Shown here piece by piece: positions 22,648 through 57,900 of a stretch of 64,000 nucleotides of DNA. How positions within the stretch are numbered: the first letter of the stretch is position 1; every line of letters begins with the position of its first letter. Source of the stretch: Eledone cirrhosa (Eukaryota); contig OZ024746.1 in assembly GCA_964016885.1 (NCBI GenBank), forward strand, positions 54,250,001-54,314,000. Reading direction: 5' to 3'. A program made the translations under genes and the position numbers. The notes under the pieces were generated by a model that did no database searches, was not told the origin of the DNA, and saw only the letters and a program-made list of their open reading frames with translations.

Positions 22648-23125
<478 letters not shown>

Positions 23126-23461
23126 ATGTTTATATATGTATGTGTATATATATATATATACATACATACATATAGATGACCCCTTAGCCTTTATCAAGGC
23201 AGAATTCTAAGAGAAGGAAAATTATGATATAACACCTGCAACCCTGATGGTATCCAATGATGTTGACTTGTTCTTCTTTTTGGTAAATATCATCTTGGTT
23301 AAGAGAGTGGGACTGGTTTGTGCAGTGCCTTTGCTCACTATAAAAGCTTCACGGCACAGGCATTGCTTTATATCTGGAGATCTCTCTGCACTTGTCATCA
23401 CATAGTGCCATGGGCTTCAGTTCTGCCGTCGGGGTCCTGAACCTTTTCCTATATATATATA

Positions 23462-39011: not shown

Positions 39012-39372
39012 AGAGAGAGAGAGAGTGAGAGAGAGAGAGTGAGGCGCGAGAGAGAGTGAGAGAGAGAGAGCGAGAAAGAGACAAACAACTTAAAGATCCA
39101 CATAGCTGCCGAGAAGAGTTCCACTTAATTTATTGCAACTATGATAGTAATCCTGGAATCCATTGAAGAGTGACATTTATATATTGTCTTTGGTTGGGTG
39201 AGGTTGATAAAGGTCATAACGACATTCTTTATACCATATCACACACACCCATACGTAGGCACACACACACACATATATATATATATATACACATATACAC
39301 ATATATATATATATATTTATTTCAACATATATTTATATATACGTATATATTTATATATATTTATATATATAT

Positions 39373-39458
<86 letters not shown>

Positions 39459-39529
39459 AAATATATATGTATAAATATATATATATATATAAATATATAA
39501 ATATATATATAGAGTAAAGCATGTCCAGA

Positions 39530-39581
<52 letters not shown>

Positions 39582-39584
<3 letters not shown>

Positions 39585-40484
39585 GTATATATAGTCTATT
39601 TTGCAATACACTCTCTGCTTAATTAAAAGCATTTCGAAGACCTTACGCAATTGTTTTAGAGTAGTGACAGTCTCACTTCTTTAAATTTTCAGCAAACAGG
39701 GGAAATAAAGCTGACAGAACTCTGTTTCGTACTTTTTGGTACTTATCAAAGCTAACTACTCCACCTGTTTGCTGAAAATCATGAATGTTTGATTCTTATA
39801 GAATTCTAGTAATAATCAAGAACTGATTATACAGAGCGGTTGCCGGTCAAGCAGAAATTGAAAATTAGAATTGGTGCTCTGAAATATCGATATATATATG
39901 AATGTATATATAGTGTATTTTGCAATACACTGTATGCTTAAGTAAATACATTTCGAAGACCTTACGCTATTGTTTTAGAGTAGTGACAGTCTCACTTACT
40001 TTAAATGTTCTGCAAACAGGGGAGATAAAGCGGACAGAGCTCTGTTTTGTACTTTTTGGTACTTATCAAAACTAACTACTCCAACTGTTTGCTGAAAATT
40101 ATGAATGTTTGATTCTTATAGAATTCTAGTAATAATCAGGAACTGATTATACAGAGCGGTTGCCGGTCAAGCAGTAATTGAAAAATTAGAATTGGTGCTC
40201 TGAAATAGCGATATATATATGAATGTATATATAGTGCATTTTGCAATACACTGTTTGCTTAATTAAAAGCATTTCGAAGACCTTACGCTATTGTTTTAGA
40301 GTAGTGACAGTCTCACTTACTTTACATTTTCAGCAAATAGGGGAGATAAAGCTGACAGAGCTCTGTTTCATCCTTTTTGGTACTTATCAAAGCTAACTGC
40401 TCCACCTGTTTGCTGAAAATCATGAATATTTGATTCTTATAGAATTCTAGTAATAATCAGCGGCAACCGCTCTGTATAATCAGT
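39582..40484 (-). mobile_element. Tandem ~320-bp retrozyme-like array (~2.75 units)
   Basis: Units start at 39582, 39901 and 40222, each with a hammerhead motif; 3' end in (TA)n, 24-bp inverted piece at 40461-40484. Confidence 0.8.
39685..39779 (-). ncRNA. Type I hammerhead ribozyme, U3-A8 core variant, extended stem I (copies 40029-40073, 40350-40394 more mutated)
   Basis: AGCT TTGATAA GTAC CAAAAA GTAC GAAA CAGA GT TCTG TC AGCT, enclosed by ATTTTCAGCAAACAGG/CCTGTTTGCTGAAAAT. Confidence 0.8.
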
Positions 40485-40705
40485 AACATTCAAACACCAA
40501 CCAGATGTGAGAAAAACCACAGACCCTCCATCTCAACTCTATTTTGAAAAGCAGAAGAACTGCGAAACCGGTAAAGGAACCAAATAAATACATATATATT
40601 TTTTTAAATAAGACTCCAGTTGCATTTTCGATTTCACCTTTTTTTCTTTATACTTTCACTCGTGAAGGACACCTCGGTTATTTTTCATTTTGTAAACCCC
40701 TTCAC

Positions 40706-40712
<7 letters not shown>
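40485..40712 (+). repeat. Dispersed retroelement 3' segment, also at 50380-50635 (+) and 50032-50172 (-)
   Basis: AACCACAGACCCTCCATCTCAACTCTA..GGAACCAAATAAATA..CACTTTCTAA-TATA shared. Confidence 0.75.
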
Positions 40713-40747
<35 letters not shown>

Positions 40748-42275: not shown

Positions 42276-43931
42276 AAACCCAGCAACCTGTATGGCCTAC
42301 CGAAAGTTCATAAGTCAAAAGAAATACAACTGGCAGTAAGAGAACAAAACAGTGAGTACATTAAATTATTACACCCAAAAGACTTAAAACTTAGACCTAT
42401 TATAGCTGGTCCAACATGCCCCACCCACCGTCTAAGCAATTTTGTTGACATTATTTTGAAACCACTATGTATTCACATACCCAGTTTCATCCGGGATGAT
42501 ATCGACTTCCTGTCCCATCTTCCCAAAACCACGGAAACGAATTCACTTCTACTCAGTTTTGATGTGGTAAGCCTTTACACCAACATTACACATGATTTAG
42601 GAATAAAGGCGGTTAAATACTGGGTGGAAAAACATAGAGAAGTGATTCCCATTAGATTCACAGCGCCATTTATATTAGACGCAGTTAAACTTATTCTGGA
42701 AAACAACACTTTCTTCTTCAATGGAAAGAATTACATCAACATTAGAGGCACAGCGATGGGAACGAAGTTTGCTCCCGTTTACGCGAACTCTGTAATGGGA
42801 TACTTAGAACAACAACTCTACCAAGAAATAGAGGAAAAATATAGTACTGACTTTAGAAAGTATATTGAAAAATCTTGGAAGAGATACCTTGACGACTGTT
42901 TCATCATCTGGACAGAATCTCTAGATACTCTGGATGAGTTCATTATCCTCCTGAATAACCTACACCCATCTCTCCAATTCACAAAAGAGATGAGTAGGAC
43001 CAAATTACCATTCGTAGATATAATGATAATCAAAAACGACACCACCATTACCACGGATATATATTATAAACACACAGACACCCATCAATATCTGAATTTT
43101 AAGTCGTGCCATCCACCTCATACAAAACGCAACATCCCATACTGCCTAGCCAGAATAATTTGTACCATTGTAGAAGATACGAATACCAGGTACAAACGCC
43201 TAACAGAACTAAGAGAATTTTTGCTCAAACAAAAATACCCATCTCTACTTATAGGAAATGACATACAGCGGGCTATAAAAATACCTATACAACAACTTAG
43301 AACAACCCAAGGAAGAAGAAACCAAGAACTGGTCATACCATTTATAATGACACACAACCCATGTCACCAGAATATCTTCAACACTGCCAAAGCAAACCTA
43401 CCGATCATTGCTCAAAGTAATGAATTAAAAGGCTTAATCACAGATCGATCTTTGACTCTTAGTAAAAGACAGCCAAAAAATTTGAAGCAATTACTAACAC
43501 AAGCAAAGTTTGACCTTAACAACAAAGACCAATCATTCACTGTATCTAAATGCAATGATAGTCGATGCGGCACATGTCAATCCATACACGCCGGTCAATA
43601 TATGAAAACAAAAACTGGAAAAATATTCCCAAATGCAAATATGAACTGCAAAAGCAGAAATCTAATTTACTGCATTAAATGCCCGAATTGTGAAGAACTA
43701 TATGTCGGTCAAACTGGAAATGCACTATCGGAACGTGCACGGGTACACCGTCAACAAATCAGAGACCCAAATGTCCGTCAGATACCTCTAAGCGGCCACC
43801 TGGCAACATGTGGTCAGGGAATATTTATAATATTCCCATTCTACAAATTACACAGCCCAAGTGAAATCAAGAGAAAAATCAAAGAAAAGAATTTTATTGA
43901 TAAATTCAAACCCAAGCTAAATGAACAATAA
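42276..43931 (+). CDS. PLE reverse transcriptase + GIY-YIG endonuclease (open frame, native start missing)
   Basis: Frame is open 60 codons upstream of the listed ORF ([16 protein letters not shown]); [26 protein letters not shown], CxxxxCxxC linker, [17 protein letters not shown] of the CCHH motif. Confidence 0.9.
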
Positions 43932-44467: not shown

Positions 44468-44522
<55 letters not shown>

Positions 44523-49990: not shown

Positions 49991-50588
49991 CAGCCGTCGG
50001 GGTCTTACTTACTCCTATATATATATATATAAATATAAAGAAAAAAAGATGAAATCGAAAATGTAACTGGTGTCTTATTTTTTTTTAAATATATATATTT
50101 ATTTGGTTCCTTTACCGGTTTCGCAGTTCTTCTGCTTTTCAAAAGTAGAGTGGAGATGGAGGGTCTGTGGTTAAAAAAAAAGCCTTCGTGAGCCCCTTTT
50201 TTCAAGTAAAAAGAAATTCAAACACTCATATATGAAAAAACAACCTGTGACACCCCCCCCTCTTATTTGAAGAACTATTGTAACACGAACTGGCGCGAAA
50301 TTTATTATAATCATTGACCAACCAATCCAATTACTTCTTGAAAAACCTTGCATTTCGAGCCACTTTTTCCATATAAAACAAGTAACATTCAGAGACCAAC
50401 CAGATGTGAGAAAAACCACAGACCCTCCATCTCAACTCTACTTTTGAAAAGCAGAAGAACTGCGAAATCGGTAAAGGAACCAAATAAATATATATATTTA
50501 AAAAAAAATAAGACTCCAGTTGCATTTTCGATTTCATCTTTTTTTCTTTATACTTTCACTCGTGTAGGACACCTCGGTTATTTTTCAT

Positions 50589-50623
<35 letters not shown>

Positions 50624-50934
50624 CACTTTCTAATATATATATATCTATATATATATATAAATGAATAGAATGAAACGAAATTTCATTTCTCACTCTTAAT
50701 ACGGCACTTACTTAAAGGTAAGTATATATGTATACGTACATACATATATATATACAGACGTACAGTAGCATGTATATATATACATACAGGCACACATACA
50801 TATATGCACGTATCAGTTTACCGAACATTTATTATAATGCTCGGTTTGTTCGTTTGTAAACAAACAAACAGCCTGAATTACGCCGTACAGTGTTTAGCAA
50901 CCACGTCACCTTTTTGTTCAACACTGACACAGGA

Positions 50935-51261: not shown

Positions 51262-52241
51262 GCACACATACATATATGCACGTATCAGTTTACCGAACAT
51301 TTATTATAATACTCGGTTTGTTCGTTTGTAAACAAACAAACAGCCTGAATTACGCCGTACAGACAAACAGCTTGCGGTAGTAAAAAAATAAATAAAATAA
51401 ACCGAAGATCGAAAAACAAAAACAAGTATATTTACTTAGGTGTCACAAGCGGTTCTGACCATGTAATTTCATTAATATATGTCTGTATGTCAACCACGTT
51501 AATATATTTTGTAATATTTTGGGATATTTTGGTAATATTTATGCCAACGTAAAATGACTTGACCTCCGTGTATTTGTTACAATGGTATAGACATTTTTTC
51601 AATACAATTTTTTCAACACAATTTAGTTCTATATGATTTTTTTCTTACCCTGTGTAAAACTTTATACTATTTGTTAACCTTGAATTATATGTATGATGTA
51701 ATTTTGTATATCTTTTGATGCCAATATATTATAATATTGTTATTATAATGTTATTATAATGTTTCTATATTGTTTATGCACACTGACAGGGAATTATATA
51801 TTACATTTATTTTTATTTTTATCTTTATTCTTATTTTTATCTTTATTATATTATACTGTAAACAATATATATATATTTAAATACTTAATAAGTGTTAGTT
51901 TGTATTTGTACTAATGTGTATATGTATATATATATATATATATATACATACATTAAGCTTTTTATTATCACCATCTATCATATTATATTATATTCTATAT
52001 CGTACTGTAATTCTCGCATTATATTACCATTTGTGTTTCAAGTTTTTGCATTATACAATATTTGCAATGTGGGTTCAGCATGTTAATCACTTCCTTGCTA
52101 TTTGGTCCATATCAATGTTTGTAACTGCTCACTCTTAATCTTAGCTAACTTTTCCTCGATATATTTCCTGAGCTTTAGTAGATGTATACTCCATATTCTT
52201 CTGAGTTTTTGGCTTGTATTGGCCGATAGTGCTTCTTGTAG

Positions 52242-52295
52242 CTTTACTTGCCCTGATGAGTCCTTAATAGGACGAAACATTGTTGGCTAATAAAG
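52242..52295 (+). ncRNA. Type I hammerhead ribozyme
   Basis: CTTTA CTT GCC CTGATGA GTCCT TAAT AGGAC GAAA C ATT G TT GGC TAA TAAAG; overlaps AATAAA; (TA)n ~55 nt downstream. Confidence 0.85.
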
Positions 52296-52345
52296 ACTTT
52301 TGATGTATTGAAGGCTTCTTTGGTTTATTTTTTATAATTTTTATA

Positions 52346-54906: not shown

Positions 54907-57900
54907 TTCTTTGAGTCTCAGTCATTGAGGTTATTTAACTCGAAAGTTTGTTGAAATGAATATCAAGCCAGTATCTGCAACCTCAGACATTCAGGACGTA
55001 TCCGAGGGTTCTTGTTGTTCCCAGCAAGCATGCCTTTTGAAGTGTTCATAAAAACGGGGCTGGACTAATCTTCTATAACCATCGTTGGAAAATCTTTGAG
55101 ATTGTACCTAGAGCGCCTATGACAATCGGGATGACCTTGATTTCATGGCAGTTCCAAATCCTTTTAAACTCCCACTTTAAATCCTAGTATCAGTTAATTT
55201 TCTCCCTCTTCTTTGTCAAATGGGCAGGCTACATCTACAATCAGGCATGATCTGTTTTCCTTGTCCAAAACCACGAGATCAGGCCTAATGTGTTCTAATT
55301 TCTTGTCCGTCTGTATCCTAAAATCCCATAGCACCTTCACCTGATCGTTTTCTATCACCGACTCTGGCTTATGCTCATACCACTTCTCAGAATGTGGTAA
55401 ATTGTTTAGTTTGCATAGATGCCAGTGGATCACCCTGCCTATCACATCATGGCTCCAACCTTTATAGTGAGTCTGAGCTAGGTGATTACACTCGGATACA
55501 ATGTGAGCCACAGTCTCCCCTCTTTCTCCACAGATCCTACACAGTTAGCTAGCCTCCTCCTTGTCAATATGGTGTTTCACCCACTTCATTATGAGGGCTT
55601 GCTCTTACGCAGCCATTAGCATTCCTTCTGTAGCTTTTTTAAGGTCTCCTCTTTTTAACCAGTTCCTTGTCTGTGGATCTCTAAATTCCGTTTTCTTAAA
55701 GAAGGTTCTATGAAGGGATATTTCATGAAGATTGCCCTTCCTCCTTGTTATTTCCTCCTTCGACATCCCCTGGTCTATTGTCTTCAGTACAATTTTGAGC
55801 ATTGGCTCCCTAATGTCAGCCACATATTTGTGTAGGTTGTTTTTCTCCATCTGAACACAGTCCTCTATACTGATAGGACCTCTTCCACCTTCAGATCTCT
55901 TTAAGTAGAATCTATCAACCTCACTCCTCTTGTGGAACATGTTGTAGATAGTCAATAGCTTCTTAGTTTTCCTATCCATTTCTTTTTGTTCAGCAACATT
56001 CCATTTCATAATCCCCGCACTGTACCTAATAATAGACACAGCTCGGCAATTTGCTGCACTTATGACATTCCTACTATTTAGATGTGATTTTAGTTTGTTC
56101 CTTAGACTCCCTATGTATTCAGATCTTATAAATTCCTTCATTTTATTTTGTTCTTGATGTCATCTGCCTCCAGAACACCTAAATATTTGTATCCCTCTTC
56201 AGTGTCAATTTCCTTTATCATCTCACCTGTTGGTACATGGATTCCGCTGCTTCTGCTCAATTTAACCCCCCCCCCCCTCCTCATCACTAGGACTCCACAC
56301 TTATTAACACAGAATTGCATACATATATCATTGCTGAAAATACGGACAGTGTCAACAAGCACATCCAACTCCTCACTCTTAACAAAGAGTTTAAGATCGT
56401 CCATGAAGAGGAGGTGGTTGATGGGAAGCTCTCCTCTTCCCAACTTGTATCCTGCTCTCACTTTTCGCAATATGACGGACAGGGCTATCAGGGAAAGGAC
56501 AAACAACAAAGGGGACAAACTATTTCCCTGGAAGATACCTCTCTTGATCTTCACGCCTCCCAAGGATTCTCCACCTGATGTTAACTCTGTTTCCCAGGAC
56601 TTCATACTTTTGCTTAATAACTCTCTGATGTTATCTACCACCTTGAAGATCTCTAGGCTTTTGGTTATCCAGGAATGAGGTACCATGTCGAATACCTTTT
56701 TGTAATCTATCCATCCCATGGCAAGACCAGTGTGCCTCCTCTTGAAATTCCTCATTACCATCTTATCAATAACTAACTGGTATTTTGTACAACGGGATTT
56801 CTTTCGGCGTCCTTTCTGTTCGTCCGGTAACAAGTTGTTTATGTGGAGGTGATAGTAGATTTCCTCAGACACAATGCTTGTTAACAGTTTCCACATTACG
56901 GACAGACAGGCCTATAGTTGGTAACATCCCTACCCTTGATTCGGTCTTTCATTACTAGAACTCTGGTACCTTTTGTCAACCACTCTGGTACTTCACCCGA
57001 CATCAAGCAGTCATTGAACATGCTTGTCAGTTTTGGGTGGAGGGATGTTATATTTTTAATCCAATACCCTTGCACACCATCTGGGCCAGGTGATTTCCAG
57101 TTGGTTAGCTTTTTGGCCTGACCTTTAAGAATTTCAGCTGTGATACTCAAATCAGGTTGTTGGTGTGCTTGTTCACTAATCTCCTTTTGAACTGTCTCAA
57201 TCCACACTGCATGACTATTATGTTCAACATCCTGCTCCCATATTCCTCTCCAGAATGTCTTAGTCTGTTCCGCCTCAGGGATCACGTCGTTGCTTCTATC
57301 TTTCCCTTCAAGCTGTTCAAACATCTTCTGGTTGTTGTCAAACATGCGGTTCTGTCTATACTGACTGACTCTGTTCTCATACCGCCTAATCTTTGCACTT
57401 TTTACTACAATGCGTTGCTTCAGTTCTTCTATGATAACATTTAGCTCTTTTCCACTAGTTTTGTATTTTATTTTCAATCTATCTTTATTGTCTGTTTTGC
57501 AATGTCCCATTCAGTAAAGACTCAAGCTTTTCAATGTATTTGCTCATTTCCTTGATTTGACCATTCAGTCGTTTCTTCCACCAAGGTTCTGATCTTTCTT
57601 GTTTGTTGTTTATTCTCCTTTCTAGGCCAAGTAATTTTTTCACCGCATTTGCGGTTGCTTTCAGGATATTGTTGCATTGGTGAAGGTTCCTCGCCTCAAG
57701 GTATGGGATGACCTTGTTTACCTTAGCTGTTGTTTCCTGTCTACAAATCTTAGATTCATAGGTTTTCCACTATCATTGTTCATTTCATCTACCACTAAGT
57801 TCAGGATATCAACAAAATCTTGCCCTAGGCCGTCAGCATTCATTTCCTCAATGGCCGTATCTTTGTTCCTGATGTTATTTATTTCAGGATTCAGATCATT

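Follow-up and report, generated by a model that had tools for sequence, protein, structure and literature searches.

A tandem 320-nt retrozyme of Eledone cirrhosa with a predicted U3-A8 hammerhead, and its likely mobilization by Penelope-like element enzymes

Results

Organization of the locus

The window, by which we mean the whole 64,000-nt stretch of contig OZ024746.1 analyzed here, comes from a genome of 3.0 Gb that is rich in (TA)n. It holds a chimeric insertion of two arms placed head to head, one built of retrozyme units and the other of the 3′ end of a Penelope-like element (PLE), with the following features.

39273 to 39593, no strand: left (TA)n target tract (TRF)
near 39580 to 39590, minus strand: 3′ end of the retrozyme arm, tail-less, merging into (TA)n
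39591 to 40459, minus strand: retrozyme arm, about 2.7 head-to-tail units, 5′-truncated at unit position 93
39686 to 39778, minus strand: predicted type I hammerhead of unit 1, intact, with core UUGAUAA at 39749 to 39743 (U3-A8)
39742 to 39729 and 39728 to 39725, minus strand: stem II and GAAA of unit 1, whose stem I has an internal loop and a long distal helix
39998 to 40103, minus strand: hammerhead of unit 2, with G12 changed to A and the first stem I pair broken
40319 to 40424, minus strand: hammerhead of unit 3, with two stem II changes
40461 to 40484, plus strand: inverted 24-nt piece of the unit (unit positions 66 to 89) at the head-to-head junction
40482 to 40713, plus strand: 3′ end of a family 1 PLE pseudo-LTR, the second arm of the chimeric insertion
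40712 to 40747, no strand: right (TA)n target tract (TRF)

TRF resolves the tandem array at 39571-40460, with a period of 321, 2.8 copies and 92% matches, in good agreement with the roughly 2.75 head-to-tail units of about 320 nt described in an earlier note made from the letters of this DNA; units 2 and 3 are 93.5% to 93.9% identical to unit 1. That note ran the repeat from 39582 to 40484, and the tandem units within this range stand, but it missed that 40461-40484 is the inverted 24-nt piece, the last 3 bases of which are common to the PLE arm. Its interpretation is supported in part: the retrozyme identity, the compensated core and the insertion into (TA)n hold, but the likely PLE helper, the head-to-head architecture and the run-on into the PLE 3′ end were all overlooked.

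The retrozyme element has no stop-to-stop frame of 200 aa or more, and the unit carries no ORF. What is found is a non-coding repeat in the 150- to 450-bp range, in tandem and with one type I hammerhead per unit, as in non-LTR retrozymes; the LTR retrozymes of plants, defined by a type III hammerhead within LTRs, differ in that here the topology is type I and the units are tandem or inverted. Chance was taken to account for a 24-nt resemblance of the unit to the family 1 PLE ORF (E = 0.015), and the miRNA matches in the window were set aside as (TA)n artefacts. The window also contains an 188-bp tandem repeat at 22708-23128 (2.2 copies, 98% matched).

The predicted hammerhead

Hammerhead positions follow the established numbering, together with the text of the papers cited below. 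On the minus strand, TTGATAA is present in all 3 units (U3 at 39749, 40069 and 40390), as is a GTC triplet (C17 at 39713, 40033 and 40354), and each unit has stem III CAGAG(C/T)TCTG and a long distal stem I, just as the earlier note had read them. In the predicted fold, stem I (AGCU/AGCU) leads into the core UUGAUAA; stem II, of 4 bp and closed by a CAAAAA loop, is followed by GAAA; stem III, also of 4 bp, has a palindromic loop; and GUC comes before the internal loop and the long distal helix. The hallmarks of a type I hammerhead, namely the three-way junction, core positions 3 to 9, G12-A13-A14, A15.1-U16.1 and an NUH site, are seen both in unit 1 and in column counts over about 195 copies. 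Folding z-scores for units 1 to 3 are −6.7, −3.6 and −4.6, and none of 200 shuffles was equally good. Only unit 1 is intact among the 3 units of the window, including the GAAA and stem II for which the note had singled it out, and its predicted cleavage site, after GUC between 39713 and 39712 of the minus strand, is the one that the note had named. From their sequences, the hammerhead of unit 2 is likely dead and that of unit 3 likely impaired. The nearest Rfam entry, Hammerhead_HH9 (RF02275), resembles the unit in loop II (CCAAAAAG) and on the 5′ side of the internal loop in stem I; unlike that entry, the repeat is dispersed and mobile, and its match at 39695-39763 (24.3 bits, E = 0.0016) does not reach the gathering score of 52. 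It is confirmed that the window feature is real, a predicted type I hammerhead in a retrozyme repeat.

U3-A8 as the family state

A skeptical view of TTGATAA would be that the repeat is a decayed satellite and the core a mutated, dead one, and both the subthreshold Rfam score and the AT-richness of the genome speak for this. Nevertheless, we regard it as extremely improbable, because the double change is fixed throughout a family of dispersed copies and covaries with changes in the stems. A DNA search of the genome with the unit gave 2,202 candidates, of which the 40 scored lie on many contigs at 95% to 97% identity, and an exact 36-mer of the unit occurs at 180 places; the repeat is thus a dispersed multicopy family, here called family A. 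Genome-wide, the family A context contained the canonical core at 0 places. When positions 3 and 8 were left free, in a degenerate pattern of the core 29 nt long, 520 places matched, against 0 for controls, and the 100 listed of these read 97 U3-A8, 2 U3-G8, 1 C3-A8 and 0 C3-G8. In the same 100 of 520, one stem II pair reads U-A in 57 and C-G in 41, the remaining 2 being mixed. By column, U3 is present in 188/193 and A8 in 193/195 copies, many of them picked by the core; among segments from loci picked instead by whole-unit similarity, 47/48 are U3-A8 and 1/48 is gapped. The earlier note had staked its retrozyme with a compensated U3-A8 core on the family consensus not being canonical, and with 97 of the 100 listed cores U3-A8 and none C3-G8 the proposal is supported family-wide. 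On these sequence counts, U3-A8 is confirmed as the family state of A and not decay.

A sister subfamily, B, at about 78% identity to A, carries the canonical pair: the 100 listed of its 161 cores read 91 C3-G8, 6 C3-A8, 2 U3-G8 and 1 U3-A8. In a covariation alignment of 24 A and 19 B copies (43 in all, 41 distinct), 97.6% of cells are paired, compared with 34% to 49% for slid structures. The 3-8 pair is Watson-Crick, U-A in 22 and C-G in 19 of the 41 distinct rows, and both sides change in 7 of 25 pairs: this one, 2 in stem II and 4 in distal stem I. Counted against covariation, the "pairs changed" measure had only 157 of 500 shuffles failing to separate. Moreover, the independent events are few, since the covariation is mainly a single split between the 2 subfamilies. 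Divergence from the column modes is 2.9% in A and 4.3% in B, the B copies having been picked differently, and by this sequence measure family A appears younger than B or of similar age, which again sits poorly with a decayed satellite. Once inserted, copies show no core conservation and no selection: post-insertion changes hit the core in 8/354 cases and other positions in 211/10322.

The earlier note called U3-A8 a rare variant, which overstates the matter. The available text of 2 papers presents it as natural (PMC3088659, PMC4209133), the first as a natural covariation and the second with about 1,300 hits in S. mansoni, in PLE motifs, and at least 2 other hammerhead-like families here share it, one in the pseudo-LTR (pLTR) of PLE family 1, whose motif has the canonical core at 0 places, and one in another repeat family. 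As far as those texts go, the published examples have the same compensated 3-8 pair and are active in vitro; the motifs in PMC4209133 are minimal PLE motifs, whereas that of family A is a full-size retrozyme motif with a stem I internal loop. Matches to a degenerate core pattern in metagenome contigs numbered 0, and among sequencing runs no RNA run was listed as containing the repeat, which counts neither for nor against its expression. The practical lesson is that CUGANGA descriptors would miss the whole of family A.

A reason for the core swap is suggested by folding. The active fold is computed to lie 3.4 kcal/mol above the ensemble in 23 A copies, a gap that rises to 6.3 after an in silico core swap; in 12 B copies the gap is 4.9 kcal/mol and falls to 2.5 after the swap. 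With C3 in place, the sequence leading into and through the core would duplicate the 3′ strand of stem III and vie with it for the same partner. Secondary-structure modeling accordingly predicts that U3-A8 destabilizes a misfold, the pairing of stem I and the core with the palindromic stem III. Subfamilies A (U3-A8) and B (C3-G8) form a natural matched pair in which the effect of a core swap can be measured.

Insertion architecture of the family

The architecture of the family was read from 87 elements, picked by the core alone, that lie behind the 100 listed places of the exact 36-mer. Sixty are head-to-head, none is tail-to-tail, 26 have a single arm and the last one is complex. There are 2 sites for canonical 3′ ends. 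An end at the TA-rich beginning of the unit is tail-less, and one at positions 44-52 carries an additional tail of about 30 to 38 nt. Among the 49 head-to-head elements with 2 canonical ends, 43 have one tail, 5 have none and 1 has two, where independence would give one tail in 50% (P = 2e-8); 11 further head-to-head elements have a non-canonical end. As the earlier note had it, the insertions are into (TA)n, which follows 69/76 tail-less and 52/58 tailed ends, against 8/27 of the 5′ ends. The median arm is 314 nt long, and 64 of 149 arms reach at least 330 nt. Family A thus has the fixed 3′ ends, optional 30- to 40-nt tail, 5′ truncation, inverted 5′ arm and microsatellite target of PLE insertions.

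How such palindromes arise is constrained by the pairs themselves. Fold-back copying of one arm is ruled out as their general origin, since in 21 of the 43 one-tail pairs copying of either arm from the other is impossible; a few junctions at stem I may nonetheless have arisen in this way. Diagnostic variants are shared by opposite arms in 25/58 cases and by tandem units in 9/29, against 6.8% between elements; these counts exclude one locus (L176), the inclusion of which brings them to 84/145 and 139/204. Hence, one template variant often, though not invariably, gave rise to both arms. That tandem units have variants in common in only 9/29 cases counts against copying of a single circle, which predicts more, and 2 head-to-tail cores are kept in only 11/87 elements. 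The L176 array (L176:2-3393, G000:C3:202686800-202690300) is the longest retrozyme array seen, with at least 2.9 kb in one arm that runs off the stretch analyzed, and is possibly a source locus.

The cleavage site offers a further handle on the template. Out of 52 partner arms, 39 read past the site, 8 fall short of it and the other 5 have their ends no more than 15 nt away. Linear cleaved monomers are thereby ruled out as the main template, which must be circular or uncleaved, and the data do not separate these 2 forms; the rolling reverse transcription of a circular RNA that the earlier note had proposed would need the first. It is a possibility, if a somewhat doubtful one, that the same element and helper operate on uncleaved multimers, with no circle and with a ribozyme that is weak or dispensable. 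The incomplete sharing of variants between tandem units fits this, as does an active fold predicted to lie about 3 kcal/mol above the ensemble; moreover, in the available text of PMC11167929, the anole PLE inserts from unprocessed RNA irrespective of hammerhead mutations. However, the compensatory changes of core and stems have been kept across the subfamilies, and related animal retrozymes yield abundant circles, according to the available part of PMC7229834.

Penelope-like elements in the genome

A GIY-YIG search of the genome gave 10,595 candidates, 150 of which were scored, and established that autonomous, EN+ PLEs (RT plus GIY-YIG) are present. One of them is as follows.

L121:3260-9400 (G000:C1:145870759-145876899): near full-length Neptune/Nematis-type PLE with two pseudo-LTRs

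This element has a 938-aa RT+GIY-YIG frame with the Cx4CxxC linker that marks Neptune/Nematis, and its pseudo-LTRs are 97.8% alike. A head-to-head retrozyme copy lies in the same locus, at L121:286-705. In PLE family 1, to which L121 belongs, the two fixed ends lie about 60 nt from each other, and 7/7 head-to-head copies with 2 canonical ends have one tail. The tails of family 1 and of the retrozyme both terminate in TTCTAAT, a match too short to point to a helper.

Given that the copy architecture of the retrozyme is identical to that of PLE ends, the unit could be nothing but the pseudo-LTR or 3′ end of an autonomous PLE yet to be found, and its copies the 5′-truncated insertions of that element. 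Xenopus retrozymes are homologous to pLTRs in the available text of a preprint (10.64898/2026.07.22.740005), and only 40 of more than 2,000 candidates were scored in the DNA searches. We consider this very unlikely. Arms of more than one unit continue as further units, which add up to about 2.9 kb at L176, and none runs into an ORF; among 50 GIY-YIG loci (from the 150 of 10,595 candidates scored) no pLTR proved homologous to the retrozyme unit; and the retrozyme hammerhead is full-size, unlike the minimal PLE motifs in this genome. The RT+GIY-YIG ORF sits in other elements, and the retrozyme is not itself an autonomous PLE.

The window has several other traces of such elements. A 5′-truncated PLE at 42276-43931 (plus strand, 3′ end near 44520) has an open 551-aa RT+GIY-YIG frame and is 98% identical to family 2 (L124). 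Head-to-head family 1 3′ ends with one tail lie at 50031-50651, with two minimal U3-A8 hammerhead-like motifs at 50142 (minus) and 50444 (plus). A canonical CTGATGA hammerhead-like motif at 52225-52315 (plus) belongs to a different repeat family that is found in L118 as well. Hammerhead-like motifs also occur as opposite-strand pairs, 21449 (minus) with 21536 (plus) and 27751 (plus) with 28085 (minus), which are probably ends of other PLE-type repeats. An RVT_1 fragment at 56138-56911 (minus; E = 2e-17) was matched by none of the three PLE proteins tried. Elsewhere in the genome, L002:2141-2300, L064 and L098:774-929 represent another (TA)-ended family with a minimal U3-A8 hammerhead-like motif and no linked ORF.

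Retrozyme-PLE chimeras

The PLE arm of the window consists of the last ~230 nt of a family 1 pLTR, is 89% identical to L121, carries a minimal U3-A8 hammerhead-like motif at 40544 and has its tailed end in (TA)n. It meets the inverted 24-nt piece of the unit through a 3-nt microhomology, with no (TA)n at the junction. Since the retrozyme arm is tail-less and the PLE arm tailed, the one-tail pattern holds in this chimera. At a second locus, L019, a retrozyme arm is joined to the tailed end of PLE family 2 via a 7-nt microhomology, so that in 2 chimeras the partner is an ORF-linked PLE 3′ end; the upstream part of the PLE is absent from the far flank at L019 and from that of the window copy (left flank). 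In L002 and L049, retrozyme arms are joined to other (TA)-ended families with hammerhead-like motifs and no linked ORF. Chimeras account for 4/106 elements, with only 1 (L049, both arms of which are tail-less) among the 87 unbiased ones. Four contig runs from one study, an uninformative sample in this respect, listed no piece bridging the chimeric junction of the window.

The PLE arm of the window could instead be a chance neighbour, 2 separate insertions having been joined by deletion at the target site or later. PLE 3′ ends are indeed common, with families 1 and 2 covering about 0.46% of 291,900 flank bases; a further family 1 copy lies in the window, and the microhomology is just 3 nt. Yet the junction has no (TA)n, the orientation and the one-tail pattern fit single insertions, and L019 repeats the pattern with its 7 nt. 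At 0.46% flank cover, about 0.1 chance junctions are expected in the 48 examined, and 2 were seen. Juxtaposition by chance therefore seems unlikely to us.

Discussion

The reading that we favor, and consider very probable, is that the locus holds a dispersed, non-coding, 320-nt non-LTR retrozyme with a fixed U3-A8 predicted hammerhead, copied into (TA)n in trans by the RT/GIY-YIG protein of a Neptune/Nematis-type PLE. The family, its copy architecture, the covariation and the chimeric junctions are observed; the steps that might connect them can be laid out as follows. Tandem copies would be transcribed, and the ribozyme would cut after GUC to release monomers, which may circularise. A PLE protein would bind the retrozyme RNA and cut a (TA)n tract, and the two DNA ends would each prime cDNA on RNA, from a tail-less start at about unit positions 10-20 or a tailed start at 47-50. 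The RT would pass intact or religated ribozyme sites and halt at variable points, after which the two cDNAs would join head-to-head, often through short overlaps. At the window locus, one end would have copied retrozyme, and the other about 230 nt of PLE RNA before switching to retrozyme.

This scheme draws on what is known of PLEs from the available texts of 2 papers. The first gives 5′ truncation, partial tandems, inverted 5′ copies and microsatellite targets, with a tail of 30-40 bp often at one end only (PMC8557442). In the second, the purified protein, a predicted dimer, cuts AT-rich DNA and extends both strands; the tail is the distance between two RT start sites; and in vitro the protein uses unprocessed RNA, hammerhead cleavage being dispensable (PMC11167929). 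Family A resembles Neptune/Nematis-type PLEs, as far as those texts describe them, in 5′ truncation, partial tandems, the inverted 5′ arm, the often one-sided 30- to 40-nt tail and the microsatellite bias, and differs from them in having no ORF, a full-size hammerhead and no homologous autonomous pLTR in the 50 loci. A bolder version of the scheme, to which we give an even chance, is that a PLE dimer primes both ends of one (TA)n cut, with one tailed and one tail-less start, and can hold two RNAs, such that the copies are a fossil record of PLE integration, and that U3-A8 was selected to escape the stem III misfold.

With the metazoan non-LTR retrozymes of coral, mussel and axolotl, as the available part of PMC7229834 presents them, family A shares a non-coding repeat of 170-400 nt with one type I hammerhead per unit, and, with 10.64898/2026.07.22.740005 added, low GC and co-occurrence with PLEs. 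By these testable features family A, known here from DNA alone, belongs among them. It is set apart by the fixed U3-A8 core, the C3-G8 sister subfamily and a 4-bp palindromic stem III, and by its mostly short head-to-head insertions where the others form long arrays. Tails and chimeras like those of family A are not described for retrozymes in the available text of PMC7229834 and 10.64898/2026.07.22.740005, the supplements of which list many families and may include U3-A8 retrozymes. The preprint, in its available text, argues that metazoan retrozymes are non-autonomous PLE derivatives and reports cleavage in 1 of 9 retrozyme dimers tested, with 8 of 9 uncleaved (10.64898/2026.07.22.740005).

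Retrozymes, U3-A8 cores and PLE tails are thus already known, and the U3-A8 variant alone is of modest novelty, as it has been published; what is added here is the matched subfamilies, the one-tail rule and the retrozyme-PLE chimeras. A search of literature titles and abstract openings, with most subscription journals and the early Penelope papers outside its range, returned no description of family A, of a one-tail count or of retrozyme-PLE chimeras. The insertion pattern carries more weight than the core variant. Inverted PLE copies and one-sided tails are named as an open question in the available text of PMC8557442, and the 43/49 one-tail rule and the chimeric arms lead to a prediction that can be tested in the existing in vitro PLE assay, as that assay appears in the available text of PMC11167929. 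The link between retrozymes and PLEs has so far been one of co-occurrence and pLTR homology, going by the available text of 10.64898/2026.07.22.740005. If the bolder version of the scheme is true, the chimeras would testify directly, at the level of the genome, that PLE particles carry animal retrozymes.
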